Shown: one piece after another, positions 8,692 through 30,066 of the stretch
How positions within the stretch are numbered: position 1 is the first letter of the stretch
Layout: each line of letters starts with the position of its first letter
Origin: Minisyncoccota bacterium
Lineage (GTDB): Bacteria; Patescibacteriota; Minisyncoccia; Phycocordibacterales; DATDWN01
Direction: 5' to 3'
DNA: 64,000 nt
NCBI GenBank assembly: GCA_041674105.1
Contig: JBAYWK010000001.1
Coordinates: 167,114-231,113 of the forward strand
Made by a program: the position numbers and the translations under genes
The notes under the pieces: model-generated
The model's input: the letters and a program-made list of their open reading frames with translations, nothing else
Databases searched by the model: none
What the model was told of the DNA's origin: nothing

Positions 8692-8812
8692 CGTCCGGCA
8701 TAGTCAAAATGACTGTGCTGGACGTTTCAAGAATCGCTCCGTCGTTCGATTCCTGCTCGCAAAGCAGTGCTTTGCTCGGGCACACAAAAATCCGCTTACG
8801 CGGATATTTTTG
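8692..8812 (-). repeat. tRNA-Lys 3' trailer: two terminator-like hairpins, an inverted copy of the tRNA's own T-arm (cgttcgattcctgc at 8743-8756) and an 8/9 direct copy of its 3' end (8692-8700)
   Basis: 13 of 14 nt match gcaggaatcgaac of the tRNA-Lys gene, in inverted orientation. The hairpin CCGCGTAAGCGG + T-run follows immediately after the tRNA. Confidence 0.4.
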
Positions 8813-8885
8813 TGCGCCCGGCAGGAATCGAACCTGCGACCATCTCCTTAAAAGGGAGCTGCTCTACCGACTGAGCTACGGGCGC
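8813..8885 (-). tRNA. tRNA-Lys(TTT)
   Basis: Cloverleaf checked by hand. Acceptor GCGCCCG/CGGGCGC, T-arm GCAGG-TTCGATT-CCTGC, anticodon loop CTTTTAA. 73 nt, no encoded CCA. Confidence 0.85.
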
Positions 8886-9035
8886 ATATGCTTGAGTAAT
8901 CAAACGATAAAAACAGTTGAAGCGGGGTCGTGGAAATTTTCGAGCGACAGCTGGAAAACTATCCCTGACCAAAATTACTACAAAATATTAACTCTTAGAA
9001 ATATACCAAATAAACTTAAAAAGTCCAACAACTTT

Positions 9036-9380
9036 TTAAAGAGGTAAGTCAAAAGCTAAAAATCCTGGACCTGTAAAAACAAGAGAAAGGAGAATTATTA
9101 TAACCACTATATGCATACCCATATCTGGTTTTTTGTCTGAATATTTTCTATCTAAATAGTAGTTTAACTTTGCCAGAGCAATTCCAAGGAGAGCAAATAT
9201 TTGTGTAAAAAGTCCGATAAATATAAAAAAACTAAATACTATATACAAAATAGAAAGCCATTTTAATGACTTGTTGTATCTTTTTATACCGTATTTTAAT
9301 CCTATAAGAGCAACGGTTATTCTAAGCAAAAAAGGCGAAATCAATCCAAATGATAATAAGAAAGGAAAAAGTGAAAGCAT
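9036..9380 (-). CDS. hypothetical polytopic membrane protein
   Basis: 114 aa, three to four hydrophobic helices. Confidence 0.45.
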   Translation of the reverse strand: MLSLFPFLLSFGLISPFLLRITVALIGLKYGIKRYNKSLKWLSILYIVFSFFIFIGLFTQIFALLGIALAKLNYYLDRKYSDKKPDMGMHIVVIIILLSLVFTGPGFLAFDLPL

Positions 9381-9410
9381 AGACTCTATTTTAGAAGTTT
9401 TTTTCTATAT

Positions 9411-9908
9411 ATGCAATATGGTATAGTCATTTCTATGAAAAAAGAGGTTTTTGTATTACTTCATAATATAAGAAGTATTCATAATGTTGGTTCTATATTT
9501 CGCACATCAAACGCTTTGGGTATAAATAAAATATACCTTTCGGGCTTTACTCCTACACCTTTGGACCGTTTCAATAAAAAAAGAAAAGATTTTGCAAAGG
9601 TTTCTCTCGGTTCTGAAAACGAAATAAATTGGGAGTATGTAGAAAAACCAACAAAGCTTTTAAAAGAACTAAAGAAACAAAATTTTCAGATAATAGGACT
9701 TGAGCAGTTTAAAAAGTCTAAAGACTATAAAAAAATAAAAACAAAATTTCCAGTAATTTTTTTGGTGGGTAATGAAGTAGAAGGGATAGATAAAAAAATG
9801 CTAGGCATTTGTGATGTTGTAGCTGAAATACCAATGAAAGGAAAGAAAGAATCACTCAATGTCTCAATTGCTTTTGGTGTAGGTCTATTTAGGATTTTGG
9901 AGATTTAG
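9411..9908 (+). CDS. SpoU/TrmH-family RNA 2'-O-methyltransferase
   Basis: SPOUT motifs LLHNIRSIHNVGSIFRTSNALG, GNEVEGI and ESLNVSIAFGVG. The real start may be MKKEV at 9435. Confidence 0.7.
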   Translation: MQYGIVISMKKEVFVLLHNIRSIHNVGSIFRTSNALGINKIYLSGFTPTPLDRFNKKRKDFAKVSLGSENEINWEYVEKPTKLLKELKKQNFQIIGLEQFKKSKDYKKIKTKFPVIFLVGNEVEGIDKKMLGICDVVAEIPMKGKKESLNVSIAFGVGLFRILEI

Positions 9909-10792
9909 TAGGTTAGACTGTGAACTATTTTTCCTTCATTATCATATAAAATAATATTTTCTTTTCTTTGTTTCCACAAAATATCGCTTCTTTTTAGGTA
10001 CACCCTCCATTCTTTTTTATAGAAATCAGGATCATTTTTGTATGTGTTTATGCAAGAATTGTAGTTTATTTTCTCATATATAAAGTTTTTACATTCATAA
10101 CTCCAGTTTAGAGGTAGTGTTTTTGTTTCTATCTTACAAGAGGGGAAGTATTCAATATAATCAAGGCAAGCATCATTTATTGTTAACTTTGGAATAGAGG
10201 ATAGATCCATTTCTCTAGGTCTAGGACAACTTGTGGTTAGGTAGGGTATGAATGTTTGAAATTGAGACAAGTACCCAGAACATTTATTCACCTTAAAACT
10301 TGCTCCATTTGGTGAAATACCTGTGACAATATAAACAGTTTCTCCTCCAGATAGAATTATGTTTTCTTCAGAATTTACTTGTCCAGCAAAAAACAAATAA
10401 GATGCTCTAGGTATTGTGATGGAGTTTCCTGAACTAGCACTTCTTATTGTCCAGCCGGTTATAGGTATGCTTGTTGTGGCTTTATTGTCTGTTTGAATTG
10501 TTATATATTCATTTCCCGGTTTTGTTGAACGGCTAACATATCTTATAAATACCAACCCTTTGTATTTTGATTCTGTTTTCTGAGCTTCTTTCTCGTCTAT
10601 TTGTTTTTGTATATCCAGGGCTTGTTTTTCTGCTTCGTTTAGTTGTTTTTGAATATCCACCCTTTGCTCTGCTTCTGTTTTTGGAGTGTTGTCTACAGGA
10701 GGACCAGTTAGGTTGTTTTTTGTACCACCGAAAAGAGCAATACCAATGATAAGAAGAAGAATACCTATTCCTGTATAGTCATCTTTACTCAT
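9905..10792 (-). CDS. membrane-anchored protein with lamin-tail-like (LTD) beta domain and Cys-rich C-terminal region
   Basis: N-terminal TM helix followed by a coiled coil. The segment EYITIQTDNKATTSIPITGWTIRSASSGNSITIPRASYLFFAGQ...ETVYIVTG matches the LTD pattern. Confidence 0.45.
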   Translation of the reverse strand: MSKDDYTGIGILLLIIGIALFGGTKNNLTGPPVDNTPKTEAEQRVDIQKQLNEAEKQALDIQKQIDEKEAQKTESKYKGLVFIRYVSRSTKPGNEYITIQTDNKATTSIPITGWTIRSASSGNSITIPRASYLFFAGQVNSEENIILSGGETVYIVTGISPNGASFKVNKCSGYLSQFQTFIPYLTTSCPRPREMDLSSIPKLTINDACLDYIEYFPSCKIETKTLPLNWSYECKNFIYEKINYNSCINTYKNDPDFYKKEWRVYLKRSDILWKQRKENIILYDNEGKIVHSLTY

Positions 10793-10801
10793 TTATATAT
10801 T

Positions 10802-11704
10802 CTACATCTTTTGGTGTTTATCACAAAAGTGTGTACTTCTTCCTCCGATAACAATTCTCTTTATTATCCCTCCACAACCTCTTTTAGAACAAATCTCTTT
10901 TGTTTTTCGGTATACTTTATGTGAATTTTGAAAGCCTCCTTTTTCTCCATTTATATTTCTATAATCAGACATTGAGTCTCCTCCCATAGAAATAGATTTT
11001 TTCAATATTTTTATCATTGAATTTAGTATTCTCTTGTACTGATTGTCGGAGATAGACAAAACTTTTTTTTCTGGGTGTATACACGACTCCCAAAGGATTT
11101 CATCAGAATAGATATTACCAATTCCAGCAATTAAGGATTGGTCCATAAGAGCAGTTTTTATTTTAAGTGTTGGTTTTTTTAATAGCTGAGATTTAAGTTT
11201 TTTAAATGATAAGTTGTTTAAAGGATCTACCCCAAGTTCTTTTAAGTGAATACTTTTATATACAAAATCTGTCTCAAAAAGCCTAACAGTCCCAAATTTT
11301 CTCATATCTGAAAAGGCTAAATTTTTACCGTTAGACAAGCTAATAACAAATCTCAAGTGACCATTGAAAGGGTCTTTTAGATTTTTTTCATCACTTTGCC
11401 ATTTTTTATTTTTAAAAATATATTTTCCGTAAAGAAAATGTCCAGTCATTTTCATATGGACTAGAATAGTTTTATTTTTGTTTAGATGTACCAGTATGTA
11501 TTTTCCTCTTCTTTCTACATCTTTAAATTTTGAACCGATTATTTCTTTTTTAAATTTTTTAAAATATTTTTTATTTTTAAGTGTATCTTTTTGTTTGTAT
11601 TTTGTTCCAATATAATAGTCTGTCCATACATCTTTTATGGAAAGGTTTGGCAAAACCTTTCTTAGTCCTTTTACTGTTGTTGTAACTTCTGGTAATTCAG
11701 GCAT
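10802..11704 (-). CDS. mutM: formamidopyrimidine-DNA glycosylase (Fpg/Nei family)
   Basis: Starts MPELPEV. C-terminal zinc finger CSKRGCGG...CDKHQ. Confidence 0.8.
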   Translation of the reverse strand: MPELPEVTTTVKGLRKVLPNLSIKDVWTDYYIGTKYKQKDTLKNKKYFKKFKKEIIGSKFKDVERRGKYILVHLNKNKTILVHMKMTGHFLYGKYIFKNKKWQSDEKNLKDPFNGHLRFVISLSNGKNLAFSDMRKFGTVRLFETDFVYKSIHLKELGVDPLNNLSFKKLKSQLLKKPTLKIKTALMDQSLIAGIGNIYSDEILWESCIHPEKKVLSISDNQYKRILNSMIKILKKSISMGGDSMSDYRNINGEKGGFQNSHKVYRKTKEICSKRGCGGIIKRIVIGGRSTHFCDKHQKM

Positions 11705-11708
11705 CTAT

Positions 11709-12284: not shown

Positions 12285-12365
12285 AATAGGCTAAATAGAA
12301 GCTATTTTGGGTGAAGTTACTACGAGGTTGATTTATTTCTCCTTATGTTATACTCTATAGCTCAT

Positions 12366-12629: not shown

Positions 12630-12632
12630 CAA

Positions 12633-12656
12633 AAAACCACCCGAGGTGGTTTTTTG
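12633..12656 (+). terminator. rho-independent terminator after rpsT
   Basis: AACCACCC-gag-GTGGTT followed by T5. Confidence 0.6.
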
Positions 12657-12702
12657 TTATTTGTATTGATATAATTGAGTTATTAAAATTAATATAAATA
12701 AT

Positions 12703-12965: not shown

Positions 12966-13316
12966 GGTAGGAATCTCCCTCAAAAAATCATTTGCCGTCG
13001 CAAGTGATTTTTCTGGGCACCGGTTTGTCGACAAGCTCTGCCGATTTTGTAGACCTCAAATCTCTTCGATTCTGAAAGGGTGCTTTGGCAATGAAAATAC
13101 ATTAGATCCCTAACGAAAAATAGGCTAACGATTCTCAGTAGGAATCTTCCGCGAGTAAAATTTTGCCGTCGCAAAATTTTCTCGTGTCCGCAGCTCGCGA
13201 CCCATCGTGTTCGATGGGTACCCCGCTCCGCTTTTCGATTCCTAACGAAAAGCAATAACATTGCTTTTCTCCGGGAGCACAATATAAAAAACCCAGAGAT
13301 GGGTTTTTTTATATTG
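12966..13316 (-). repeat. tandem pair of GC-rich tRNA-trailer miniature elements downstream of tRNA-Arg(GCG). Each is bounded by a direct copy of the tRNA 3' end GGTAGGAATC: A1 at 12976-13147 and A2 at 13148-13316
   Basis: GGTAGGAATC occurs at 12966-12975, GTAGGAATC at 13139-13147, and again within the tRNA at 13324-13333. A1 carries the 65-nt conserved core at 12976-13043, shared with the elements at 22116 and 26050. A2 carries a degenerate copy. The track's 127-aa ORF at 12980..13363 is an artefact of this region. Confidence 0.6.
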
Positions 13317-13388
13317 TGCTCCCGGTAGGAATCGAACCTACATTTTAACTTCCGCAAAGTCATGTCCTATCCATTGAACGACGGGAGC
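13317..13388 (-). tRNA. tRNA-Arg(GCG)
   Basis: Hand-folded. Acceptor GCTCCCG/CGGGAGC, T-arm GTAGG-TTCGATT-CCTAC, anticodon loop TTGCGGA. The 3' end forms a roughly 25-bp perfect palindrome with the downstream sequence. Confidence 0.7.
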
Positions 13389-16715: not shown

Positions 16716-16872
16716 TTAAATAAGTATAATTTTTTTGTGGTATTCATTGTACAAAATTCGAATGTATTTTGAAAGTAACCCTGATGCCGACTAAACGACT
16801 TAGGATGCGGATTAATTCCGACAAAAAGTATTTTTGGTTTTTTGTATCTATAAAGGATTATGTGTGTCTTTG

Positions 16873-17214
16873 CTATTTCTCCAAAATGGTTTTTAGAGTC
16901 AATGCTTCGTTGTGCTCCATATCTTTCGCACCGTACACGAGCGTGACCATTCCTTTCTTGCCCAGGCGTTTGAGTTCCGCGAGCAGGTCGGTTTTTGACT
17001 TGAGTTCGCGCCTGTATTTCACTTGGAACGTCGTCCATCGCTTCGGATCGTGACCAAACCACTTCCGCAACTCGGTGCTCGGGCCGATATCTTTAAGCCA
17101 CATATCTATCGCTGCTTTTTGTTTCGTAAGGCCACGTGGCCAAAGCCTATCTACTAAAATTCTTCTGCCGTCGTTTTTTGTAGGCTTCTCGTATACGCGT
17201 TTAATTCTTATCAT
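16873..17214 (-). CDS. DUF488 family protein (YeaO-like)
   Basis: MIRIKRVYE...RILVDRLWPRG...WFGHDPKRW. GC-rich, around 50%. Start trimmed to avoid overlap with the next gene. Confidence 0.6.
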   Translation of the reverse strand: MIRIKRVYEKPTKNDGRRILVDRLWPRGLTKQKAAIDMWLKDIGPSTELRKWFGHDPKRWTTFQVKYRRELKSKTDLLAELKRLGKKGMVTLVYGAKDMEHNEALTLKTILEK

Positions 17215-17221
17215 AGTGTAA

Positions 17222-17935
17222 TTAATATCCGCTAAATTCTTCAGTCCTGATATTGTCTTCATTGGCGCCGGCTTTCATCAGCATCTCGCGCATTGCTTTG
17301 ACCATGCCGACAGGCCCGGACAAGTAATAGATCGGGATGGCGATGTCCAGTATGTACCGCTTTAACATGGCGTCGTCGATATACCCACTCTCTCCACTCC
17401 ATTCGGTTTCGGGAGTATCGGTATAGACGGGGATAAATATGAAATTCTGATTTTCTTTTGCAAAGCCTACCATGTCTGCCGTAAAGGCCGCGTCAGCTGG
17501 GGTTTTGTTAGAATACAAAAGTGTTATCTTGTGTGGCAGGTGGTCGTGCGATGCCTGCGCGATAATGCTTCGTACTGGCGTGATGCCGATGCCGCCAATC
17601 AGGAAGACGGCTGGCGTGGTCTCGTTCTTATGAAGTTTGAAATCTCCATACGGAGCGTCAAATTTTACTTCCGTACCAATGGGAAGATTTTTAAGTACAC
17701 GCTTAAAGGCGGTATCCCGCATACGCGTTGCTGTCACGATATTACTTTCGTATGGTGCGTGAGCGAGAGAAAAACCTCTTGTATTTCCTTCTTCATCGGT
17801 CTCGGGAGGATTGATCAAAGTAATATCGCAAAATTGTCCGGCGACAAATTCGAATCCGGCTGGCTTTTCCCAATAGAAAGCCATTGTACCGTTTGCAATT
17901 TCTTCTTTTTTTGTGAGCTTTATATTGTATATCAT
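17222..17935 (-). CDS. ferredoxin-NADP+ reductase-like FAD/NAD(P)-binding oxidoreductase
   Basis: RGFSLA FAD motif and GGIGITP NAD motif. GC-rich. Confidence 0.6.
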   Translation of the reverse strand: MIYNIKLTKKEEIANGTMAFYWEKPAGFEFVAGQFCDITLINPPETDEEGNTRGFSLAHAPYESNIVTATRMRDTAFKRVLKNLPIGTEVKFDAPYGDFKLHKNETTPAVFLIGGIGITPVRSIIAQASHDHLPHKITLLYSNKTPADAAFTADMVGFAKENQNFIFIPVYTDTPETEWSGESGYIDDAMLKRYILDIAIPIYYLSGPVGMVKAMREMLMKAGANEDNIRTEEFSGY

Positions 17936-17989
17936 GTTATTTTTATGGTTATTTTTTAAACTTCGTTTGAGAATATATAATTTGTCCAT

Positions 17990-18198
17990 TTCTTACTTTT
18001 AAAAAAGACGTGAGTCGATATCTTGTGGCAGAAGTGCAGTTCATGATGTCGTGCACAAGCCAACCCTTTGCGGAAATTTGAATTCCGATTTGTTGCGGTG
18101 ACGATTGCTGGAACTTTGAACCGATAATACGGCTTAGTTACAGCAATGTTGATAAAATTATACGAAAATTAAGGCGAATATACCAAGAAAAGCCGGAC
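17990..18198 (-). repeat. copy 1 of a roughly 200-bp paralogous leader/intergenic element (5' of the oxidoreductase gene, begins at the NUDIX stop)
   Basis: About 70% identical to 18796-19006. Shared blocks TTCTGAGCAAA, GATATC, TTTTATCAACA and ATCGTCACCGC. Confidence 0.5.
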
Positions 18199-18768
18199 TT
18201 ATTCGATATTCCTACTTTTGCTCAGAAGATTTACTAATTTCCTCAACCTCCTCGTCTCAGAAAGCTTGGATCCTGCAAGCCGGGTAGAGGCACCAGTGGA
18301 GGCTATAAGAGTGGCACGCTTGAGCTCCGTCAGTTGGAGTTTCGAAAGATAATCAGTGATCATCTTTCGCGCGGGCGGATTAAAACCACTATATGCTTCT
18401 CCGGCGATGTAGTCTTTTATCGGAACCCAACGCCATTCAGAAAATTTCTCCGGTTCCATGAGCTTGGCTTCTTGATCAGTTGTGCAGTAGAACATCAACA
18501 CCACATCTCCTTCTTTCGCTCCAGGAACTTCGCCAATAAAATCTAAAATTTTCAAATCTGTAATATTAACCTCTTCAGCCGTCTCTCGGCGAAGAGTTTG
18601 CTCGATGGTCTCTCCCAAATCTGATCTACCTCCTGGAATTGTCCAAACGGAAATTTTCTTCCACTTGTCGGGCGTATAGTGGCGATGTCCGGTTAACACT
18701 TTGCCGTCTTTTACAATGACCGCAATCGGACAGGTGATTTCATCTCCTTGTTTTGTAAGTTGTTCGTT
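18199..18768 (-). CDS. NUDIX hydrolase
   Basis: Nudix box GGRSDLGETIEQTLRRETAEEVNI. Start set to MNEQ; the track's start is GTG. Confidence 0.75.
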   Translation of the reverse strand, partial: NEQLTKQGDEITCPIAVIVKDGKVLTGHRHYTPDKWKKISVWTIPGGRSDLGETIEQTLRRETAEEVNITDLKILDFIGEVPGAKEGDVVLMFYCTTDQEAKLMEPEKFSEWRWVPIKDYIAGEAYSGFNPPARKMITDYLSKLQLTELKRATLIASTGASTRLAGSKLSETRRLRKLVNLLSKSRNIE

Positions 18769-18795
18769 CATAGTTCGAATCCCATCAGGGTTCAC

Positions 18796-19006
18796 TCATT
18801 TTATCACTTTTCGGTTTTGAAATGTAGCGCAAAATAAGGGAATTTTAATTGCCACTTTTCAAAACTACTGGCGGTGACGATGTCCCGAAGTTAGAACCAA
18901 TGAGAACGCTTCATTTCAGCCGTGTTGATAAAATTGTACGTGATTTACGGCAAATTTACAGAGAAAACCCAACCTGCTTTGATATCCCCGGATTTGCTCA
19001 GAAAAT
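18796..19006 (-). repeat. copy 2 of the roughly 200-bp paralogous leader element (5' of NUDIX, begins at the deacetylase stop)
   Basis: See copy 1. Confidence 0.5.
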
Positions 19007-19726
19007 CTATTGAGGACGAGCTTTCTGTAACAACTCGGACACTGTCACAAACGTATATCCTTCCTGCTTAAGCGCATCAATTATAAGCGGTAAAGCTTGG
19101 CGTTGTTCGCCACAGGTATCACACAGGGGGTGTAAAAGAATAATGGAACCAGGCCTTGTGTTCTCAATTGCATTGCTCACGAAGAATTCGGTGGTAGTGC
19201 CATAAGTGTCAGGCTCAACATCCCAAATAACCGTTGCTATATCGTGCTTATCCAGATACCACGGTAAGCCCAAGAGTTTCTTACTGTTTGGAGGACGGAA
19301 TGTAATCTTTCCCTCATATCCAGCCTGTCGAATAAGGCGATTTGTGGTTTGGATTTCATTATTTATGAAATCTTGCGATTTGAAGATTATTCTTTGGTGA
19401 GAATATGAATGGTTTCCAAGCTCGTTTCCGTTGGCAACTATCTTTTTTGTTAGATCGGGATATTTTTCGATTTGCTGACCAATTGCGTAAAACGTCGCGG
19501 TTACTTGTTTCTGTGCGAGCACATCAAGCACTTCATTCGTATAAGCAGTCGGCGCATCATCAAAGGTGAGTGCGACCACTTTTTCATCTGTGTCTACTCT
19601 TGTTATCAACACTCCAAAGACCTGATACGTCCTGGAATTCATGAGTTTGTAAGTGCCATACAAGACGACTATCACCGCAAGCAGTATCGCAATTACAATC
19701 AGAAATAGTTTAAAAAATTTATGCAT
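19007..19726 (-). CDS. polysaccharide deacetylase (NodB homology domain), N-terminal TM anchor
   Basis: VALTFDDAPTAYT...ATFYAIGQQ...GNHSYSHQ. Confidence 0.75.
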   Translation of the reverse strand: MHKFFKLFLIVIAILLAVIVVLYGTYKLMNSRTYQVFGVLITRVDTDEKVVALTFDDAPTAYTNEVLDVLAQKQVTATFYAIGQQIEKYPDLTKKIVANGNELGNHSYSHQRIIFKSQDFINNEIQTTNRLIRQAGYEGKITFRPPNSKKLLGLPWYLDKHDIATVIWDVEPDTYGTTTEFFVSNAIENTRPGSIILLHPLCDTCGEQRQALPLIIDALKQEGYTFVTVSELLQKARPQ

Positions 19727-19744
19727 AATTCTAATTTGCCCATT

Positions 19745-19834
19745 TGGCGGAGGAGGTGAGATTCGAACTCACGGTCCCCGTAAAGAGACTCCTGTTTTCA
19801 AGACAGGTGCAATCGGCCACTCTGCCACTCCTCC
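19745..19834 (-). tRNA. tRNA-Ser(TGA) copy 1, CCA encoded
   Basis: Class II tRNA. Anticodon loop CTTGAAA, long variable arm, T-arm GTGAG-TTCGAAT-CTCAC. Confidence 0.85.
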
Positions 19835-19868
19835 ATATTTTATATTATCTTTCCACTGTTTCTACTGT
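19747..19868 (-). repeat. 122-bp direct repeat copy 1 (tRNA-Ser plus 34 bp of its 5' flank), identical to 22277-22398
   Basis: Visible identity through ...ccatattttatattatctttccactgtttctactgt. Confidence 0.8.
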
Positions 19869-19872
19869 TATA

Positions 19873-20454
19873 TTATTTTCTCACAATAAAATGAAAAACA
19901 TGCCAGTGCTTCATATCTCCCTTTGCTGTTGGTCTGTCTGCTTCTTCTTCCTTAAAATCAATAATCTCTAAACCATTCAAAAACTTTTCTGCCTGTTCAC
20001 GAGTCTGAAAATTCATCTTGTGATCTGGAACATTCCACTCATCTTTTTCACCGAAAAATTGTCCGGTAAGTATTCCACCGGTTTTAAGTGAAGAAGTGAT
20101 TGATTTGAAAACTCTTTCAAAAGTGTTTTGTGGATTGAATGGTAAAGAGTATTGTGCATTTATGAGATCGTATTTGTCTTCAACAAAATCAAAATCCTCA
20201 AAAGTACTGATAACATATGAGACAATTTCTGGTGGAAAGTTTTGAATGATGTCTTGAGCAAGAGGTTTACTGTCTACAGCATTAATATGTTTAAAACCTT
20301 TTGAAACGAGGAACTTTACGTCATTCAATGCACCAGAGCCTAAATCCAATGCTTCATTTTTATCATTCACAAAATCCACCGCCTTAACGAGTAGAGGTCG
20401 TGGCTTTATGTCCTTTGTCCGTTCAAAGTATTCTTTCCAAGTATTTTCTGACAT
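19873..20454 (-). CDS. class I SAM-dependent methyltransferase
   Basis: Motif I LDLGSGALND. 193 aa. Confidence 0.6.
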   Translation of the reverse strand: MSENTWKEYFERTKDIKPRPLLVKAVDFVNDKNEALDLGSGALNDVKFLVSKGFKHINAVDSKPLAQDIIQNFPPEIVSYVISTFEDFDFVEDKYDLINAQYSLPFNPQNTFERVFKSITSSLKTGGILTGQFFGEKDEWNVPDHKMNFQTREQAEKFLNGLEIIDFKEEEADRPTAKGDMKHWHVFHFIVRK

Positions 20455-20543
20455 AGTTGCATATTAGCACATAGTTTTTGATAAAGAAAAAGTCCCACCG
20501 TTCGCATTTCGCTACTAGGTGGAACTTGATTCACGGCCGATCC

Positions 20544-21794
20544 TTACGGATGAGTAATGAAAGTGTACTGGCGTTCGGGACTGAGGAGAGCAACTACTTC
20601 CTCCATCTGCTCGAACGTAACCTTTTGCAGATTGTCCCAGACCTCCTGCATGGGAATGATTCGATGATGGTTAACCAATTCACCCGCACATTCTCCACAC
20701 AGACCTGCTCCAGAATGATCGATCATGAGACACTGCTTGATGCAGGACTCGAGCTTGCGATCAAAGAGATCACGCCGTGATGGAACCATTGAGATGCACT
20801 TGCGTACAAGCTCGTTGATATATGGCGTAGCTTCTGGACTGATCTGCCCCTCGATCCGATACTCGCAGACATCCTGTAAATCCTCGAAGTCGATACCGAT
20901 GCTGTATGCGAGTCCACGTTTTTCGCGAACTTCGTCAAACAGAATCTTTCCGAGAACATTGTTGAACACCCTGCGTGCTTGTCGAGGAAAATCTAACGGA
21001 AACGCCCACGTTGCTTTGTAGCCCGTCTGATCAACCTTGAAGTTGACGTGGTCGGACATCTTCACTGTGTGAGACTGTTCCATTGGGATTGCAAATTGAT
21101 TGAACATTGAAGGAATAGGATTTCTCCGTCCCTCCTTTTGCTTTCCAAACGGACTCCGTTCAAGCTCGGCGATTACTTCTTCGGTCGTGAGACCTCCGAG
21201 AATTACCAAGCTCATGTTGGCTGGCGTGTAGTGTTGGTCGTAGAAACCTTGCAGGTCAGCTTCCGTTGCCGAAAGAAAACCCTCAGGACGACCAAGTGGA
21301 CGATTGTACGTTTCGAGACGATGCCCTTTGAAAAGCGATCGTCGTATTGTCATATCCCATTCCAATTTTTCAAGGAATGGGTACCGCTGATTGAACTCGC
21401 GGTAGATGACTTTACGTTCTCTTTCAATATCCTTTTCGAGACGAGCTTCGAGAAGCATCGAACCGAAAATTGAAATTACTTCTCGAAATGTCGACAAATC
21501 TGCTGGAACAGCAAACTTGTATCGAGTTGAGAGGTAGTTGGTCCTACCATACTCCGCTCGACCACCAACGCTCTCGATAAACTGCTTCACCGAGTCGTGT
21601 GTACGATTCGGAATGTTTTGACTGACACAATGTTCAACGAAGTGAGCGACACCAGGCATCTTGACCTGATCTTCGCGTGCTCCGCTGTGAACGACGATCT
21701 CCATTCTAATCCAAGGACGATCCTGGGACATCGAATGAATTTCAAGACCGTTCGGAAGAGCACATTTGTTGAAACCTACATACGGATCGTACAT
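20544..21794 (-). CDS. M16-family zinc peptidase (pitrilysin-like)
   Basis: HFVEH zinc motif plus downstream ERERKVIYREF glutamates. GC around 48%, clearly above the genome background. Confidence 0.75.
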   Translation of the reverse strand: MYDPYVGFNKCALPNGLEIHSMSQDRPWIRMEIVVHSGAREDQVKMPGVAHFVEHCVSQNIPNRTHDSVKQFIESVGGRAEYGRTNYLSTRYKFAVPADLSTFREVISIFGSMLLEARLEKDIERERKVIYREFNQRYPFLEKLEWDMTIRRSLFKGHRLETYNRPLGRPEGFLSATEADLQGFYDQHYTPANMSLVILGGLTTEEVIAELERSPFGKQKEGRRNPIPSMFNQFAIPMEQSHTVKMSDHVNFKVDQTGYKATWAFPLDFPRQARRVFNNVLGKILFDEVREKRGLAYSIGIDFEDLQDVCEYRIEGQISPEATPYINELVRKCISMVPSRRDLFDRKLESCIKQCLMIDHSGAGLCGECAGELVNHHRIIPMQEVWDNLQKVTFEQMEEVVALLSPERQYTFITHP

Positions 21795-22095
21795 TTCTTC
21801 TCCTCTTTTTCGTGGTGAATTTGATGGTTACAAAGAATTTAGTCCATGCCTATTTTAGCACACTTAATGCCACTATGTCAATAGCACCCTTGTTTTTCCA
21901 TAAAGAGCGAGTACTGAAACTTGAACAGTTTTCTCTCTATGCTTCGGATTACGTTTCTTTATTCACTCGCATATATCAACTACTCGAAAAGTATCGGATG
22001 ACTGATGAGCTGACTGGAATAGGAATAGGTGTCAGGTACCGTTTTTTTACTTCAATCTCAAAAAATTAAAAACACCCCGAAGGGTGTCTTTAATT

Positions 22096-22277
22096 TGCGG
22101 AGGAGGTGAGAGTTTCTCCCTCGAAAAATCACTTGCCGTCGCAAGTGGTTTTTCTGGGCACCGGTTTGTCGACAAGCCCTGCTGGGCTCGTAGACCGACA
22201 AACCGTTCGAATCTCACCCGAAAAACTTTCAGTTTTTCTTCCACCCAAACAAAAAACACCTAACGGTGTTCTTGTTT
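22096..22277 (-). repeat. tRNA-trailer miniature element B downstream of tRNA-Ser copy 2, bounded by a 15-nt direct copy of the tRNA 3' end (gcggaggaggtgaga at 22096-22110)
   Basis: Conserved core tccctcgaaaaatcacttgccgtcgcaagtggtttttctgggcaccggtttgtcgacaagc at 22116-22176. Inverted copy of the Ser T-arm ccgttcgaatctcacc at 22201-22216. Confidence 0.6.
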
Positions 22278-22364
22278 GCGGAGGAGGTGAGATTCGAACT
22301 CACGGTCCCCGTAAAGAGACTCCTGTTTTCAAGACAGGTGCAATCGGCCACTCTGCCACTCCTC
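22278..22364 (-). tRNA. tRNA-Ser(TGA) copy 2 (identical body, CCA not encoded)
   Basis: Identical to copy 1. Confidence 0.85.
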
Positions 22365-22375
22365 CATATTTTATA

Positions 22376-22591
22376 TTATCTTTCCACTGTTTCTACTGTA
22401 TATTTTTTTGCCACAAAATATATATAAATAATATCCAATATGGCGAAAGTATTTATAATCAATAAAATAATGAACCATTTTTTCTGGGAAAGTTGCGCTG
22501 ATTTCCATAAAGCAAGCCCTTTCCAAGGTAATGTCCATACTAATACTGCTGCAATTAGCCAAGGATTTATTGTTAACATTTCTGTTGACAT
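22376..22591 (-). CDS. small two-helix membrane protein (about 72 aa)
   Basis: MSTEMLTINPWLIAAVLVWTLPWKGLALWK... Confidence 0.35.
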   Translation of the reverse strand: MSTEMLTINPWLIAAVLVWTLPWKGLALWKSAQLSQKKWFIILLIINTFAILDIIYIYFVAKKYTVETVER

Positions 22592-25467: not shown

Positions 25468-25468
25468 T

Positions 25469-25795: not shown

Positions 25796-25836
25796 TCTTT
25801 TCTGTTTTTTAAAAATATGTTAATCTGTCTATGTTT

Positions 25837-25908
25837 GCTCTCGTAGTTCAATGGATAGAACAGAGCTCTTCTAAGGCTTTGATGTAGGTTCGATTCCTGC
25901 CGAGAGCA
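25837..25908 (+). tRNA. tRNA-Arg(TCT)
   Basis: Acceptor GCTCTCG/CGAGAGC, T-arm GTAGG-TTCGATT-CCTGC, anticodon loop CTTCTAA. The 3' end lies within a 24-bp perfect palindrome at 25899-25952. Confidence 0.85.
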
Positions 25909-26066
25909 CAATTAAAAAAATCCCCTTGGGGATTTTTTTAATTGTGCTCTCGGAGAAATAGTCCGGGAGACTGTTTTGTCAGGAATCGAACGGTTTGTCG
26001 ACAAACCGGTACCCAGAAAAACACTTGGGGCGGCAAGTGTTTTTTCGAGGGAGATATCCTGCCGAG
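25909..26066 (+). repeat. tRNA-trailer miniature element C downstream of tRNA-Arg(TCT), ending in a direct copy of the tRNA 3' end (tcctgccgag at 26057-26066)
   Basis: Inverted T-arm copy caggaatcgaacgg at 25980-25993. Conserved core in reverse orientation at 25990-26055, with the GTCGAC palindrome and the AAAAACACTTGGGGCGGCAAGTGTTTTTT hairpin. Confidence 0.6.
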
Positions 26067-26180
26067 GACATGTTATTTTATGTTAAAATTATTAAACAGA
26101 TAATTTTTTGCTTGTTATGCTACTTACTTTAACGGTGCAAGAAATATTGTAAGAAATATCATAAAATTTAGTCTTGAAAT

Positions 26181-26693: not shown

Positions 26694-26694
26694 T

Positions 26695-27492: not shown

Positions 27493-27586
27493 GATTTTTT
27501 TAAAAATAAAGTCTTGGACCATGTACAATAAAAGTACAGTAGAATAAGTCGAAATTACTGATAAAACATAGATAAAATATAACTTT

Positions 27587-28318
27587 ATGAAAAATTTAAT
27601 GATAAAAGGGGTGAGTCTTTTAGCTTTATTAGCATTTGTATTTGCACCGATTGTTTCTAACGCCGAGTTAGATGCCAATGTCATAGGAAGTGTGGATTTA
27701 GTGTCAAAAACTAATGATAATGTATTAGATGTAAAAATTGATACTGACACAAATGTTGGCACATCTGTGGATACAGATAATGATGGAAAAGTAATGGTTG
27801 ATACAAGTTCAGGGAGTACTTCAAATCAAGTAAAAGCAGAATCAGATACAAATTCTGCTTTGAAAATTAATACTCTCGGTATTGCTATTACTTCATCTTC
27901 ACAAGTGAAGTCTGATGCTGATCTTGAGATATTTAGCTCAAATGTTTCTGTAGAGAAAGAAAAAGTTGATAAGGTAGAGATTAAGTCTGATGAGGATGGT
28001 GAATCAAAGGTGGAAGTGGTCTATAAACACAGAGGTAGATTATTAGGATTTATTCCAATAACTCTAAAATCAACTACAAGTGTTGAAGCAAACTCAGATT
28101 CAGAAATCGTGGTAAAGACAAGAATGCCTTGGTGGAGTTTCTTGGTGGGTAAGGTAGATTACTCAAAAACAGATATTGAGTCAAAAATAAAAAATAACGA
28201 AACTGTAAAGGCAAACGCCAAAGCAAATGCTTCTGCAGAATCCAAAGCAAAAGTAGTAGAAGCTGTTATTGCAGAAGTTCAAGCTGATGTTGATGCACAA
28301 GCTTCATTAAATAAATAA
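27587..28318 (+). CDS. secreted hypothetical protein (signal peptide), third gene of the ECF operon
   Basis: MKNLMIKGVSLLALLAFVFAPIVSNAE signal peptide. D/S/T-rich. Confidence 0.5.
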   Translation: MKNLMIKGVSLLALLAFVFAPIVSNAELDANVIGSVDLVSKTNDNVLDVKIDTDTNVGTSVDTDNDGKVMVDTSSGSTSNQVKAESDTNSALKINTLGIAITSSSQVKSDADLEIFSSNVSVEKEKVDKVEIKSDEDGESKVEVVYKHRGRLLGFIPITLKSTTSVEANSDSEIVVKTRMPWWSFLVGKVDYSKTDIESKIKNNETVKANAKANASAESKAKVVEAVIAEVQADVDAQASLNK

Positions 28319-28355
28319 GATGACTGTGAGTTTATAAACTGAAAACTTAAAACAA

Positions 28356-28388
28356 TAAAACTGCCATTTAGGCAGTTTTATTGTTTTG
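28356..28388 (+). terminator. rho-independent terminator (AAAACTGCC-attt-AGGCAGTTTT)
   Basis: Hairpin followed by a T-run. Confidence 0.6.
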
Positions 28389-28405
28389 CATACTAGAATC
28401 TATTC

Positions 28406-28481
28406 TGGTGCGCGATACAGGACTCGAACCTATGACCTTCCCGGTGTAAACGGGTTGCTCTACCAACTGAGCTAATCGCGC
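28406..28481 (-). tRNA. tRNA-Val(TAC), CCA encoded
   Basis: Acceptor GCGCGAT/ATCGCGC, anticodon loop TTTACAC, T-loop TTCGAGT. Confidence 0.85.
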
Positions 28482-28558
28482 GTATAGATATTTATACACT
28501 ATTACTATCTTTAATTCAAGATTTAATGTGGCATATTAGTGTGCTATATTAGAGCAGA

Positions 28559-29278
28559 ATGGACATAGAAATATTATACGAAGATAAAGATATCTTAGCC
28601 ATAAACAAGCCCTCAGGGTTGGTTGTTCATGGTGATGGGAGAACAGAAGAGAAGACTCTCGTGGACTGGTTTGTTTATAAATATCCAGAAAGTAAGGACA
28701 TCGGTGAGTCTTTGGTAGACAAGGATGGTAAAAAAATAGATAGGTCTGGCGTTGTACACAGACTAGATAGAGAAACCTCAGGCGTTTTACTTTTAGCTAA
28801 GACTCAGACGGGTTTTGATAATTTAAAATCTCAGTTTCAGACTCGTAATGTAGAAAAAGAATACCATGCTTTTGTTTATGGAAAAGTTAAATTGGATAAG
28901 GGTATTATAAATAGACCAATTGGCCGTAGCGGTAAAGATTTCAGAAAAAAGACAGCGCAGAGAGGATCTAGGGGACAGACTAGAGAAGCGGTTACAGAGT
29001 ATGAAACTATCCTTAGATCCAATAATTATTCTTTCCTTTATGTATTTCCTAAAACAGGTAGAACACACCAAATAAGAGTGCATTTTAAAGCTATAAACTA
29101 CCCTTTGGTTGCAGATAAACTGTATTCTGGAAGACAAGAAAATACTTTAGGTTTTGAAAGGTTGGCTTTGCACGCTTACTCCATAACTTTTGTAGATCTT
29201 CGGGGAGAGAAGATGTCCGCCACAGCTCCTTACCCAGCTGATTTTGAACTAGCCTTAGAAAAGTTGCAAAGTGAGTAG
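28559..29278 (+). CDS. RluA-family pseudouridine synthase
   Basis: HRLDRETSGVLLLAK catalytic-Asp motif. Confidence 0.75.
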   Translation: MDIEILYEDKDILAINKPSGLVVHGDGRTEEKTLVDWFVYKYPESKDIGESLVDKDGKKIDRSGVVHRLDRETSGVLLLAKTQTGFDNLKSQFQTRNVEKEYHAFVYGKVKLDKGIINRPIGRSGKDFRKKTAQRGSRGQTREAVTEYETILRSNNYSFLYVFPKTGRTHQIRVHFKAINYPLVADKLYSGRQENTLGFERLALHAYSITFVDLRGEKMSATAPYPADFELALEKLQSE

Positions 29279-29302
29279 TCTTATGTTAGATTTGTAGTCA
29301 CT

Positions 29303-29761
29303 ATGGAAAGAGCAGTGTTATCACCAGTAAATATATCTCAAAGAAAATCTTTGGACATTCGTTCAGGGGATACTGTTCGTATACAACAAAGAATTGTTGA
29401 GACAGATAAAAAAACAGGTAAACTAAAAACTCGACTCCAAGCTTTTGAAGGTTTAATTATCGCTGTAAAACACGGAAAAGAAGCCGGGGGGACTTTTACA
29501 GTTAGAAAGATTGCCTCAGGAGTTGGTGTAGAGAAAATATTTCCTATCTATTCTCCAATGATAGATTCTATTGAAGTAATAAAAAGATCAAAAGTGCGCA
29601 GAGCAAAGCTGTATCACATTAGAGATAAAGCAGCCAAGGAAATAAGAAGGCAGATGAGAAACACTAGAGAATTGCCAGATGTCGTTTCAGAGGAAGATGT
29701 GGTTTTGGAAGAAGAAGTTCCTGTTGAAATAGAAAAGACAGAAGAGGAAGTGAAAGAATAA
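29303..29761 (+). CDS. rplS: 50S ribosomal protein L19 with acidic C-terminal extension
   Basis: RSGDTVRI...FEGLIIA...FTVRK...[13 protein letters not shown]...RRAKLYHIR. Confidence 0.8.
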
Positions 29762-29763
29762 AC

Positions 29764-29789
29764 AAAAAATCCCGAGAGGGATTTTTTGT
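29764..29789 (+). terminator. rho-independent terminator after rplS
   Basis: AAAAAATCCCGAGAGGGATTTTTTG. Confidence 0.6.
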
Positions 29790-29826
29790 TGTAAAAAATT
29801 AAAGTTCAGAATATAATCACAGGATT

Positions 29827-29911
29827 GCCTAGGTGTTGAAATTGGTAGACAAGCACCCTTGAGGTGGGTGTGCCGAAAGGTGTGGAGGTTCGAGTCCTCT
29901 CCTAGGCACCA
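29827..29911 (+). tRNA. tRNA-Leu(GAG), class II, CCA encoded
   Basis: Anticodon loop TTGAGGT, long variable arm TGCCGAAAGGTGTG, T-loop TTCGAGT. Confidence 0.85.
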
Positions 29912-30066
29912 AATTTATGAAATAAATTTTGACTAGGAGGTCTAGGATTTTTTCAAAAATCCGTAAGACGGACTCGAAGCCCGATTGAGATGTTTTATGA
30001 GTTTGCGAAATAAAACAGCTAATTGGGATACTGAGTATGTAAGACTCGAGTCCTCTCCTAGGCACC
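29912..30066 (+). repeat. tRNA-Leu 3' trailer element: about 130 bp ending in a 22-nt direct repeat of the tRNA 3' end (TCGAGTCCTCTCCTAGGCACCA at 30045-30066), with an inverted T-loop copy GGACTCGAA at 30015-30023
   Basis: Exact 22-nt repeat visible. Integration-scar-like. The track's ORF at 29829..30065 is spurious. Confidence 0.65.

Follow-up and report, generated by a model that had tools for sequence, protein, structure and literature searches.

Small hairpin-rich elements at tRNA 3' ends in Patescibacteria: a candidate family of tRNA-homing miniature insertions

The identity segments of tyrosine integrases that target tRNA genes typically span the stretch between the T-loop and the 3' end of the tRNA. 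Integrative elements of this kind, CIMEs and P4-type att sites are inserted at tRNA 3' ends with the gene restored, have a direct repeat of this same extent and accumulate as tandem arrays at the site nearest the tRNA, and these properties are shared by the small elements described here. The present units, however, are only 120–200 bp long, lack an integrase and internal cargo, contain as their core a conserved double hairpin kept by covariation, and carry an extra inverted copy of the T-arm, with one core family serving more than 13 different tRNAs. MITEs, REP/BIME sequences and the double-hairpin elements of fungal mitochondria are likewise small, non-coding, multi-copy, hairpin-rich, intergenic and terminator-like, vary in presence among relatives and show resemblance between copies within a genome. 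Unlike MITEs and REP/BIME, the present elements are confined to tRNA 3' ends in one orientation, and host tRNA sequence, different at every site, makes up their 'terminal inverted repeats' and 'target duplication', the duplication being variable (10–22 nt) and much longer than usual. We know of no transposase-encoding relative.

IS200/IS605 elements and PATEs resemble the units in their subterminal hairpins, their one-orientation insertion 3' of a short motif (here TTCGA) and a small size compatible with single-stranded circles, and the TnpB reRNA layout is also alike, with a structured right end of ~100 nt followed by a flank of ~16–20 nt matching the site beside the motif. However, TnpA and TnpB were not seen here, the left- and right-end hairpins are unlike each other, the left end would need a host-specific tRNA 3' end, the inner boundary is not fixed, and the element matched no IS605-type RNA in Rfam. 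Casposons use tRNA 3' ends as targets. They, Cas1-type integration in general and CRISPR spacer acquisition share with the units a polarised addition beside a fixed 'leader' (here the tRNA) and a defined segment that is duplicated with every insertion, whereas here Cas1 and a polymerase are absent, the duplication has no fixed length, and what is inserted is neither a large transposon nor a variable spacer but a structured, conserved element. The tandem-spacer RNAs of TIGR-Tas systems occur in CPR bacteria (PMC12045711). Like these and the IS110 bridge RNA, the units combine a conserved scaffold with two short segments matching opposite strands of one target, but no IS110 recombinase or Tas gene is nearby, 36-nt tandem arrays and box C/D motifs are absent, and the segments that would act as guides flank the scaffold and do not lie in internal loops. 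No Rfam family matched the element and no relevant paper on such a family was found, neither search being exhaustive. This agrees with an earlier note on this DNA, which recognised no described family, and the repeat family is apparently undescribed so far.

Five tRNA genes in the Saccharibacteria-like window, the whole 64-kb stretch of DNA that was analysed, are followed on their 3' side by small non-coding hairpin elements, Table 1. The earlier note had described these five trailers as carrying copies of their host tRNAs. The terminal repeats persisted once ARAGORN and Rfam had been used to redefine the tRNA boundaries, and the description stood apart from small coordinate errors and a weak direct copy at tRNA-Lys. 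From the tRNA outward a unit consists of a terminator hairpin abutting the tRNA 3' end, an inverted tRNA copy, a core and a direct copy. The inverted part comprises the T-loop and the 3' strand of the T-stem, often with the acceptor strand, and is interrupted by a small hairpin (hp3). The direct copy, usually ~105 nt farther out, reproduces the last 10–22 nt of the tRNA, beginning in the T-loop and stopping precisely at the 3' end, and is still joined to the old trailer; the host tRNA gene beside the unit is intact. The inner boundary of the direct copy varies from position 55 to 60, and short filler bases are present.

Table 1. Coordinates of host tRNA genes and elements in the window
Locus	Feature	Position	Strand	Evidence or remark
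Ser(TGA) copy 2	host tRNA	22278..22365	-	ARAGORN, Rfam
	t1 terminator-like hairpin, abuts tRNA 3' end	22247..22277	.	sequence, terminator scan
	tRNA-proximal module	22206..22246	+	sequence
	inverted T-loop and T-stem 3' strand copy	22206-22218		within proximal module
	small hairpin hp3	22220-22238		within proximal module
	decayed inverted acceptor copy	22239-22246		within proximal module
	family A core	22115..22210	+ (antisense to host tRNA)	138.8 bits, covariation, fold z = -5.8 and -7.6
	distal direct copy, tRNA 3' end and 3 nt of trailer	22094..22111	+	18/18
	t2 outer terminator hairpin	22060..22095	.	sequence, terminator scan
	putative older outer A-core remnant (GGTGTCAGGTACCGTTT)	22028..22044	+	motif similarity
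Arg(GCG)	host tRNA	13316..13388	-	ARAGORN, Rfam
	palindrome, acceptor 3' strand fused to terminator hairpin	13271..13325	.	24-nt arms, 96%
	inner family B unit	13138..13270	+	22.6 bits, E = 8.5e-6; fold z = -7.3
	direct copy GTAGGAATC	13138-13146		then core B
	inverted T-arm copy	13234-13246
	hp3	13247-13269
	outer, partly decayed family A unit	12966..13083	+	89.7 bits
	direct copy GGTAGGAATC	12966-12975		core from 12974
	degenerate inverted T-arm copy	13062-13074
Arg(TCT)	host tRNA	25837..25909	+	ARAGORN, Rfam
	proximal module	25900..25991	.
	palindrome	25900-25953		acceptor and terminator
	hp3	25954-25979
	inverted T-arm copy	25980-25991
	family A core and direct copy	25991..26066	-	76.1 bits
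	A core	25991-26054		inner part of hairpin 2 deleted
	direct copy TCCTGCCGAG	26057-26066
Leu(GAG)	host tRNA	29827..29911	+	ARAGORN; not listed by Rfam gathering scan
	family C unit	29912..30067	-	sequence
	t1	29912-29929
	inverted acceptor copy and hp3	29930-29969
	inverted T-arm copy	29970-29978
	core C	29979-30044
	22-nt direct copy	30046-30067
Lys(TTT)	host tRNA	8812..8885	-	ARAGORN, Rfam
	degenerate unit	8673..8821	+	9.8 bits, E = 0.26, not significant alone
	marginal core-like stretch	8673-8763
	inverted T-arm copy	8745-8756
	hp3	8760-8774
	acceptor/terminator palindrome	8775-8821

Three unrelated cores (A, B and C) were found in this one architecture. Three trailers (Ser, the outer one at Arg-GCG and Arg-TCT) contain a 102-nt double-hairpin core, family A; the fourth core copy, the inner one at Arg-GCG, is a diverged relative, family B; and the Leu trailer has a different core, family C, in the same layout. 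That three trailers share a core had been claimed before and was borne out, the pattern CTGGGYACCGGTTTGTCGACAA occurring three times in the window against none expected by chance and a covariance-model search of the whole 64 kb recovering all three A cores, the diverged copy at 13127-13252 (E = 8.5e-6) and no other credible core. The A core at tRNA-Ser reads TCTCCCTCG, hairpin 1, CTGGGCACCGG, hairpin 2, CCGTTCGA, and the direct copy TTTGCGGAGGAGGTGAGA matches the host at 22275-22292. The hp3 and acceptor copy of this Ser unit are conserved beside the same tRNA in the related loci L003, L007, L009, L021 and L025, and in L009 a near-identical t2 hairpin directly adjoins tRNA-Ser. The GGTGTCAGGTACCGTTT motif is also found outside the A unit in L023, L027, L030 and L031. 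Immediately beyond the tRNA-Ser units are accessory genes and a GC-rich island. Hairpin 2 is broken in the outer A unit at Arg-GCG. The B unit there has relatives in L008, L023 and L007; core C at tRNA-Leu is 86% identical to L020 2163-2247 and is also the inner unit of L014. The Leu direct copy matches 29890-29911 at 22/22 and ends exactly at CCA.

Other details of the earlier note fared unevenly. The inverted T-arm copies were found at Lys, Ser, Arg-TCT and Leu, with the Leu copy at 29970-29978 and not at 30015, and Arg-GCG carries another that had not been listed. The fusion of both Arg acceptor strands to a downstream complement as palindromes is real (26 nt at 100% for Arg-TCT). Of the tandem direct copies given for Arg-GCG the outer was present as described and the inner is only a 9-mer, and the Lys direct copy 'cgtccggca' (8692) is an 8/9 match within a hairpin and a small ORF, indistinguishable from chance.

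Among 44 tRNAs in the window and related loci, an inverted 12-mer (positions 54-65, ≤1 mismatch) was found downstream of 21 and upstream of 1. A direct 15-mer (≤2 mismatches) is present in the downstream sequence of 14 of them and in the upstream sequence of none. Units accompany over half of the tRNAs at these loci; the tRNAs for Val, His and Ser copy 1 are without one. Pattern scans for the A core gave ~30 further copies in Saccharibacteria, Parcubacteria and other Patescibacteria assemblies. The genome scan contributed 11 Patescibacteria loci, 10 of them beside a called tRNA (the exception is L005), its remaining 5 matches being chance occurrences in high-GC coding sequence, and the metagenome scan added 15 loci. 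Within 260 nt of a tRNA 3' end, and always antisense to the tRNA, were 24 of 30 A copies, spanning more than 13 tRNA species; the others are outer array members or orphans. This association is partly biased because the loci were selected for containing the core, a bias lessened by the other tRNAs in those loci and by the whole-window model search. In relatives most copies of the core lie close to tRNA 3' ends, a point that the earlier note had proposed to check, and its view of one regular, non-chance family tied to these ends is upheld.

The length of the A core is constant across ~29 copies, with the same 102 nt and the same ends. In the A-core alignment 97% of helix cells were paired and 18 of 27 pairs showed double changes; the observed value was reached in 0 of 500 shuffles, and slid controls were 30–52% paired. 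The helix pairs comprised 745 Watson-Crick pairs against 6 G-U and 12 A-C, with no G-U excess on either strand. In folds of the intact units, whose z ranged from -4.3 to -7.6, both core hairpins were enclosed by a stem made of the direct and the inverted tRNA copy. Given that the compensation is Watson-Crick only on both strands and that the tRNA copies close the stem, folded single-stranded DNA is the likely substrate. In a terminator scan hairpin 1, t1 and t2 scored as terminators. The element is bracketed by terminators, one of them standing between it and the tRNA, and no promoter-like site was found inside the element.

Such strong covariation and terminator-like hairpins speak for a module that benefits the host and is kept by selection, not by mobility. 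It could be a bidirectional terminator or insulator stack shielding tRNA genes from convergent transcription. Alternatively it could work as an RNA, either a structured one or an antisense or guide RNA directed at the tRNA 3' end. The frequency of units among the tRNAs points the same way, and a host-useful function would also fit the retention of the tRNA-Ser(TGA) element across six genomes and the co-variation of unit flanks with the host T-loop in L014 and L028. However, the units are dispensable, as their absence from the Val, His and Ser copy 1 tRNAs indicates, their presence varies among relatives, outer units decay, three unrelated cores occupy one position, there is neither an internal promoter-like site nor the G-U bias that would mark an RNA strand, a terminator stands between tRNA and unit, and no Rfam family exists. 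Both versions are considered quite unlikely. The suggestion of a 3' external transcribed spacer RNA is weak on the same transcriptional grounds and since units are gained, lost and decaying among relatives.

At tRNA-Glu the loci L014 and L028, from two related genomes, differ by exactly one 120-nt unit, in which a 20-nt repeat and core C are accompanied by an inverted T-arm copy and a hairpin. The L014 unit has a perfect direct repeat, but its inverted part already has a deletion and mismatches, so the two parts may differ in age. A unit occupies the Arg-TCT site in the window but not in the syntenic L009; two taxa do not polarise filled and empty sites, as precise deletion between direct repeats looks like insertion; the Arg-GCG site in the syntenic L003 holds a remnant only. 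The same Lys-CTT tRNA is followed by B units in L008 and by a C unit in L020. Where units are stacked the decayed ones are outermost in most arrays, with older units outside at Arg-GCG and at the Ser remnant (22028) in the window and in L011, L014 and L007, an order consistent with entry next to the tRNA.

A leading idea of the earlier note was decayed att scars of tRNA-targeting integrative elements, taken here as fused attL and attR arms of larger elements or prophages whose interior was deleted. Direct repeats of 18–22 nt that span the tRNA sequence between T-loop and 3' end do resemble integrase identity segments, and the accessory genes and island outside the tRNA-Ser units could be read in the same way. 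However, cargo is located between units and never inside, no copy has genes between the arms, and independent deletions would not converge on one 102-nt core with the same ends in ~29 copies. Among the neighbours examined no genes or integrase were found within or beside any copy, nor an intact relative with an integrase between the tRNA and the 3'-end copy, and the core was not found in the viral contigs, phage records or plasmid records searched. With the compensatory helices and the one-unit 120-nt difference added, decayed att scars are unsupported and this origin is very improbable.

Replication template switching at quasi-palindromes would need no dedicated enzyme. A nascent strand stalled at a T-arm hairpin would use T-arm microhomology to copy the core of a different tRNA locus, the terminal GTTCGA of the core would re-anneal to the wrong strand to give the inverted copy, and a return switch would occur at the terminator hairpin; hairpin-rich cores would spread by favouring such switches. 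In keeping with this, the terminal part of family A cores is a sense-type T-loop half (CCGTTCGA), able to pair with the antisense strand of any tRNA gene, junctions fall in palindromic TCGA with 0–4 filler bases, perfect palindromes of 24–26 nt are centred on terminator loops, and units in L009 share an identical 85-nt proximal module with different cores, the breakpoint being the T-loop copy. No recombinase, transposase or reverse transcriptase was found among the neighbours examined. Set against this, the same rare multi-switch event would have to recur for three core families and beside more than 13 tRNA species, always with identical boundaries, the perfect direct repeat and degraded inverted part in L014 may be of different ages, and compensatory change maintains the core structure. 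Template switching is considered an unlikely origin.

We infer, with a probability of about one half, that the units are non-coding, non-autonomous insertion elements of ~120–200 bp that home to the 3' ends of tRNA genes among Patescibacteria, Saccharibacteria included. The earlier view of the direct repeats as att-type or target duplications from insertion is shared here. The variable inner boundary and the fillers are untidy for a precise nuclease, and the host-specificity of the inverted tRNA copy is unexplained by the model. Insertion would occur within the T-loop (TTCGA) or immediately behind it. The element would provide the tRNA with a new 3' end and a terminator, and the original 3' end, pushed outward, would become the distal repeat, in the manner of an att identity segment or of a tRNA-mimicking left end. 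Since the element codes for nothing it would be moved in trans, and no mobilising enzyme or autonomous partner was found; a structure-specific enzyme, possibly an HUH/Y1 'peel-and-paste' transposase or a tyrosine recombinase, would read the folded single-stranded DNA. Gene conversion between a tRNA and its two copies, together with the swapping of cores between loci, would then keep the parts of each unit matched.

Eight tRNA genes were found in the window with ARAGORN, seven of them confirmed by Rfam, and structured spacers lie behind five: Lys-TTT, Arg-GCG, Ser-TGA copy 2, Arg-TCT and Leu-GAG. The observation of an earlier note, that these spacers carry inverted and direct copies of the host tRNA, is as a whole real and far beyond chance. 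The repeats which it listed were still present when the tRNA boundaries were recomputed (ARAGORN, Rfam), and its coordinates were mostly right, with three small slips and one wrong position, that of the Leu inverted copy. The supposed direct copy at Lys is weak with 8 of 9 bases matching. A 22-nt core pattern occurred three times in the window with none expected by chance. A covariance model for family A, the family with the double-hairpin core, was built from 26 copies and run over the 64-kb window. The three family A copies scored 76–139 bits and a fourth, diverged copy was recovered with E = 8.5e-6. The only other match of note was a marginal one in the Lys trailer, and no further credible copy was found over the 64 kb. 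This gives four credible copies in the window and about 30 in the relatives' loci. The units are 120–200 bp in size and have no ORF of their own. Some ORFs of 78–127 amino acids do cross the elements and tRNA genes; these are almost certainly spurious and are at risk of being annotated as proteins.

Reading outward from the tRNA, a unit begins with t1, a terminator-like hairpin abutting the tRNA, followed by an inverted copy of the acceptor 3' strand, decayed or absent in some units, and by hp3, a small hairpin. The T-loop and the 3' strand of the T-stem come next as an inverted copy. Beyond this lie the core and a direct copy of the last 10–22 nt of the tRNA, in many cases with another terminator, t2, outside. 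The t1 stem of both Arg genes and of Lys is lengthened into a 21–26-nt palindrome which includes the acceptor 3' strand. Three core types, A, B and C, are present in the window. The family A core runs TCTCCCTCG, hairpin 1, CTGGGCACCGG, hairpin 2 and CCG-TTCGA and is antisense to the host tRNA in every case. The core of the inner Arg-GCG unit (family B) is related to A but diverged. The core of the Leu unit (family C) is 66 nt long and unrelated to A, with an identical layout, and is also found behind Lys-CTT in locus L020 (86% identity) and Glu-CTC in locus L014. The inverted repeats around the core are host tRNA sequence and so differ at each tRNA. Direct repeats of the 3' part of the tRNA flank the insert with matches of 18/18, 22/22 and 20/20 nt and the tRNAs are intact, which supports the proposal in the earlier note that the repeats are att-like and derive from insertion. 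When either strand is folded alone, the direct tRNA copy pairs with the inverted one to form a three-way junction enclosing the two core hairpins, and the fold z-scores of intact units are -4.3 to -7.6. Each unit is a discrete, structured segment associated with a tRNA 3' end and flanked by a repeat running from the T-loop to the 3' end.

Coordinates of the elements and of other features in the window and in the loci of relatives.
Feature	Sequence	Position	Remark
Diverged copy, covariance model	window	13127-13252	E = 8.5e-6
Inverted copy behind Leu-GAG	window	29970	not 30015 as in the earlier note
Unit remnant	window	22028	outer, more decayed
Spurious ORF	window	12980-13363(-)	
Spurious ORF	window	22106-22465(+)	
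Spurious ORF	window	29829-30065(-)	
Spurious ORF	window	8709-9047(+)	
tRNA-Ser copy 1	window	19745-19834	encodes CCA, no element
tRNA-Ser copy 2	window	22278-22365	minus strand, no CCA
Putative island	window	16850-22070	40-50% GC, genome ~31% GC
Accessory genes at tRNA-Ser(TGA)	window	19873-22069	
Accessory genes at tRNA-Ser(TGA)	L007	2006-3260	
Accessory genes at tRNA-Ser(TGA)	L009	4277-5055	
Tandem units	L009	4051-4140, 5085-5175	common 85-nt module
Array behind tRNA-Lys(CTT)	L008	1500-2040	
Subfamily A2 core	L008	1212	
Subfamily A2 core	L009	5155	
Subfamily A2 core	L026	3251	
tRNA-Val, T-loop TTCAA	L002	5788-5860	no unit
tRNA-Leu, T-loop TTCAA	L009	180-262	no unit
tRNA-His, T-loop TTCAA	window	30920-30993	no unit
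Conserved intergenic stretch	window	57616-57735	120 nt
Conserved intergenic stretch	L004	6492-6613	record label Parcubacteria
Two tandem 42-nt repeats	window	10586-10669	in minus-strand ORF
Weaker third copy of 42-nt repeat	window	27615	

The spread of the elements was examined by scanning a genome collection with a 19-base core pattern, which gave 16 loci, 11 of them in Saccharibacteria, Parcubacteria or 'Patescibacteria group' assemblies. The core lies beside a called tRNA in 10 of these 11, and the other, L005, has tRNA-like fragments only. The remaining five matches (L006, L012, L013, L015 and L016) were set aside as chance occurrences within high-GC coding sequence. A scan of metagenomes with an independent hairpin 2 pattern gave 15 further copies and one chance match within coding sequence, L022, also set aside. 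The association of the core with tRNA 3' ends is seen in 24 of 30 copies, each at most 260 nt from the 3' end of an opposite-strand tRNA; the other six are outer array members or orphans with tRNA fragments alongside. The host tRNAs are Ser-TGA, Ser-CGA, Ser-GCT, Ser-ACT, Arg-GCG, Arg-TCT, Trp, Tyr, Leu-TAA, Leu-TAG, Ile-GAT, Ile-TAT, Glu-CTC and Pro-TGG, and Arg-TCG is a host in L032 only, outside the copies counted.

The layout was also tested independently of the core using 44 tRNAs from the window and loci. An inverted 12-mer (positions 54–65, at most one mismatch) was found downstream of 21 of the 44 and upstream of one, and a direct 15-mer (at most two mismatches) downstream of 14 and upstream of none, these fractions being biased upward because the loci were selected for containing the core. 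Units are also present at tRNAs in the same loci which had not been selected for. The spacing from the inverted to the direct copy is usually about 105 nt, or about 77–83 nt with a short core. Three tRNAs have the T-loop TTCAA in place of TTCGA and all three are without a unit. This hints that the TCGA palindrome is important for targeting, three cases being too few for a test.

The length of the family A core, 102 nt, is constant across nearly all copies. Over 29 copies, pairing was found in 97% of cells and both-sided changes at 18 of 27 pairs, the observed value was reached by none of 500 shuffles and pairing fell to 30–52% when the partners were slid. In the divergent subfamily A2 the outer stem of hairpin 2 and the basal stem of hairpin 1 are swapped for compensating sequences, and the unpaired motifs, the CGTC loop, ACAA/CGTAGAC and TTCGA, are retained. 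There are 745 Watson-Crick pairs, with 6 G-U pairs on the displayed strand and 12 on the other; calling a strand by G-U versus A-C counts (6 versus 12) was not decisive. As the pairs are nearly exclusively Watson-Crick, no RNA strand is marked, and the composition fits either DNA hairpins or a requirement on both strands. Promoter-like sites in a promoter scan belonged to the tRNA alone, and a terminator scan picked out t1, t2 and hairpin 1. The terminator-like hairpin with its T-run separating tRNA and element argues against co-transcription, so that the alternative offered in the earlier note, a structured trailer (3'ETS) RNA transcribed with the tRNA, is unlikely.

Other RNA and tRNA-derived readings were considered. 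At gathering score Rfam 15 matched only tRNAs in the window, and there was no match over the Ser element, the family A unit behind tRNA-Ser(TGA) copy 2, at E ≤ 10 or over an orphan array at E ≤ 0.1. No covariance model among the Rfam 15 families of tRNA-like RNAs, IS605-orfB RNAs and ribozymes gave a match. A pseudo-tRNA or other tRNA-like gene, a permuted or split tRNA and a minihelix RNA were rejected on three grounds: the tRNA model did not match, several copies (L004, L018) lack the acceptor-like pairing, and hosts with a G-U pair in the T-stem show that the left flank corresponds to the reverse complement of the tRNA 3' strand and not to the 5' strand of the tRNA itself. A retro-copy of mature tRNA was rejected since CCA is found in the copies only where the gene itself encodes it. 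Neither a K-turn nor a box C/D motif is present.

Viral contigs contained no match to any of five patterns, which were drawn from families A, A2, B and C, and a BLAST search of phage and plasmid records with the Ser unit gave none. No description of the element family was found in the literature and the elements belong to no described family that we found. With Pfam, no integrase, transposase or reverse transcriptase was detected in the genes between the two tRNA-Ser copies, in the cargo ORFs or among the most frequent families of 120 neighbouring ORFs, although a single occurrence could escape the last of these. There is no integrase inside any unit or in 20 ORFs checked individually. Accessory genes (for a SET-domain protein, small unknown proteins, a methyltransferase and an M16 peptidase) are located between units, never within them. 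The earlier note had also suggested that the spacers may be decayed att scars of tRNA-targeting integrative elements. However, no unit has genes inside it, no integrase, transposase or reverse transcriptase was found among the neighbours examined, and about 29 copies have identical core ends and compensated helices; deletion relics were rejected on these grounds.

Comparison of related loci gave evidence of turnover. L014 and L028 can be aligned across an orthologous A unit and tRNA-Glu(CTC), and L014 has exactly 120 extra bases beside the tRNA, made up of a 20-nt repeat, core C, an inverted T-arm copy and a hairpin. The repeat, TGTGACCCTACCGGGAGTCG, spans from C56 of the T-loop to 2 nt beyond the discriminator, and its distal copy is still attached to the old trailer. 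The difference is an insertion or a precise deletion, the two being indistinguishable with two taxa. A T-loop base differing between these two tRNAs also differs in both flanking copies, which points to gene conversion among the three copies. The Arg-TCT site is occupied in the window and empty in the syntenic L009. The syntenic L003 has only a ~45-nt remnant at Arg-GCG, where the window carries two units, a damaged A unit outside and a B unit inside. The Lys-CTT tRNA is followed by B units in L008 and by a C unit in L020. The L008 array is dense and contains four or more B and A2 units, complete or partial; in front of every one is a tRNA 3'-end copy that includes 4 nt of the trailer (CATGTGCACCC...). 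Decay has gone further in the outer unit than in the inner one in most arrays (Arg-GCG and a remnant in the window, L011, L014 and L007). The t2 hairpin outside the window Ser unit is almost identical to the hairpin directly 3' of tRNA-Ser in L009, which is consistent with an incoming unit that carries a terminator of its own and pushes the old 3' end outward along with its terminator. Units are gained or lost whole and the tRNA is left intact.

Parts of units also appear to be exchanged. Orthologous Ser-TGA units keep hp3 and the acceptor copy and have entirely different hairpin 1 stems. Two tandem units in L009 are alike on the tRNA side, where an 85-nt module of terminator, acceptor copy, hp3 and inverted T-arm differs by a single mismatch, but their cores are A1 and A2 and the breakpoint is exactly at the T-loop copy. 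This indicates swapping of cores from one locus to another, with the T-loop copy as the breakpoint.

The units resemble MITEs in being short, non-coding and multi-copy. They differ in having no element-encoded terminal inverted repeats common to all copies, the inverted repeats being host tRNA, in a duplication of no fixed length (direct copies of 7–22 nt) and in that no longer version was found, nor any transposase among the neighbours examined. REP/BIME sequences (REPINs) are palindromes with a GTAG head, present at hundreds of extragenic sites, together with a RAYT gene; here the credible window copies are confined to tRNA trailers and the conserved CGTAGAC is within hairpin 2 rather than at the palindrome head. 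Integron attC sites have R''/L''...L'/R' boxes (RYYYAAC...GTTRRRY) at the outer ends of the folded strand and lie beside cassette ORFs. In the units GTT...AAC is limited to the T-loop palindrome, which sits at the stem's inner ends, and most units are without an ORF. Tyrosine integrases leave 18–22-nt direct repeats at tRNA genes, and the direct tRNA 3' repeat around the insert and the restored tRNA are shared with tRNA-targeting integrative elements and CIMEs, but no integrase was found in the element or among the neighbours examined. The comparison with miniatures derived from IS200/IS605, which insert in one orientation 3' of a conserved 4–5-nt motif and have subterminal hairpins, is mixed: the host junction is in or after TTCGA, the orientation is fixed and there are hairpins near both ends, but the boundary varies from position 55 to 60 and the end hairpins differ. 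The geometry is reminiscent of IS200/IS605 ends and TnpB reRNA: TTCGA, ~18 nt, a hairpin, a further hairpin, about 9–12 nt and the flank. No Tas or IS110 recombinase gene was found among the neighbours examined, unlike TIGR-Tas and IS110 bridge RNA systems, whose tandem 36-nt units or loop-embedded guides also differ from the layout seen here. TIGR-Tas, in which a Tas (Nop-domain) gene accompanies tandem 36-nt units (PMC12045711), was rejected on architecture. The elements are best classed with miniature, site-specific insertion elements, with an unusual host-mimicking architecture.

Insertion would occur in or just after the T-loop. The element would provide a substitute 3' end and terminator, following the logic of an att identity segment or a tRNA-mimicking left end, and may be moved in trans by an enzyme reading folded single-stranded DNA. 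The route could be IS200/IS605-like or tyrosine integrase-like and we make no choice between them. A serious rival is enzyme-free template switching at the quasi-palindromes of the T-arm and terminator, taken seriously in part because half a T-loop forms the end of the A core and could pair with the antisense strand of any tRNA gene. A terminator or insulator role beneficial to the host may also operate alongside selfish spread. Returning to enzymatic insertion, the tRNA copies, rather than being passive footprints, could form a two-strand targeting module in a conserved scaffold, making the element a programmable, nucleic-acid-guided homing element; we consider this improbable, at roughly one chance in eight. 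A Patescibacteria enzyme would read the module and insert the element at any tRNA with the mimicked T-arm. The layout, with TTCGA of the T-loop as adjacent motif followed by an 18–22-nt match, supports such guidance and is analogous to TnpB reRNA, IS110 bridge RNA or a TIGR tandem spacer.

A region of raised GC content (see table) borders the Ser unit on its outer side and has genes for DUF488, an NAD-binding oxidoreductase, NUDIX, a polysaccharide deacetylase, a methyltransferase and an M16 peptidase. Another tRNA-Ser lies within it, and the tRNA-Ser duplication covers 125 nt at 99% identity including 34 nt upstream of the tRNA. The region resembles an acquired island that may have come in through homologous recombination at the tRNA. 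At tRNA-Ser(TGA) in L007, L009 and the window, accessory genes (SET-domain protein, unknown small proteins, methyltransferase, peptidase) lie between the inner unit and an outer, older unit or array, and this flank resembles a variable region in which cassettes accumulate, although no recombinase is close by. Elsewhere in the window, an intergenic stretch 84% identical to one in L004 follows a gene with an SSB-like '...EDIPF' tail and has self-complementary ends. It had no Rfam match at gathering score and may be a conserved leader or regulatory RNA. The tandem 42-nt repeats in the table are 71% identical.

Patescibacteria genomes are tiny and gene-dense with few recognised mobile elements. 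In the loci examined, which were chosen for the core, more than half of the tRNA genes are followed by a unit. The elements provide terminators for many tRNA genes and, in practice, generate spurious ORFs and mark variable regions where accessory genes accumulate. Targeting of tRNA flanks would be a safe-haven strategy in bacteria, recalling the tRNA-targeted retroelements of eukaryotes. The structured core with host-specific tRNA mimics would imply a structure-reading single-strand recombinase or guided insertion, either of which would be of mechanistic and possibly technological interest. The elements are likely an unrecognised family of mobile DNA and, if mobile, would make up a major unrecognised part of the non-coding DNA of Patescibacteria.
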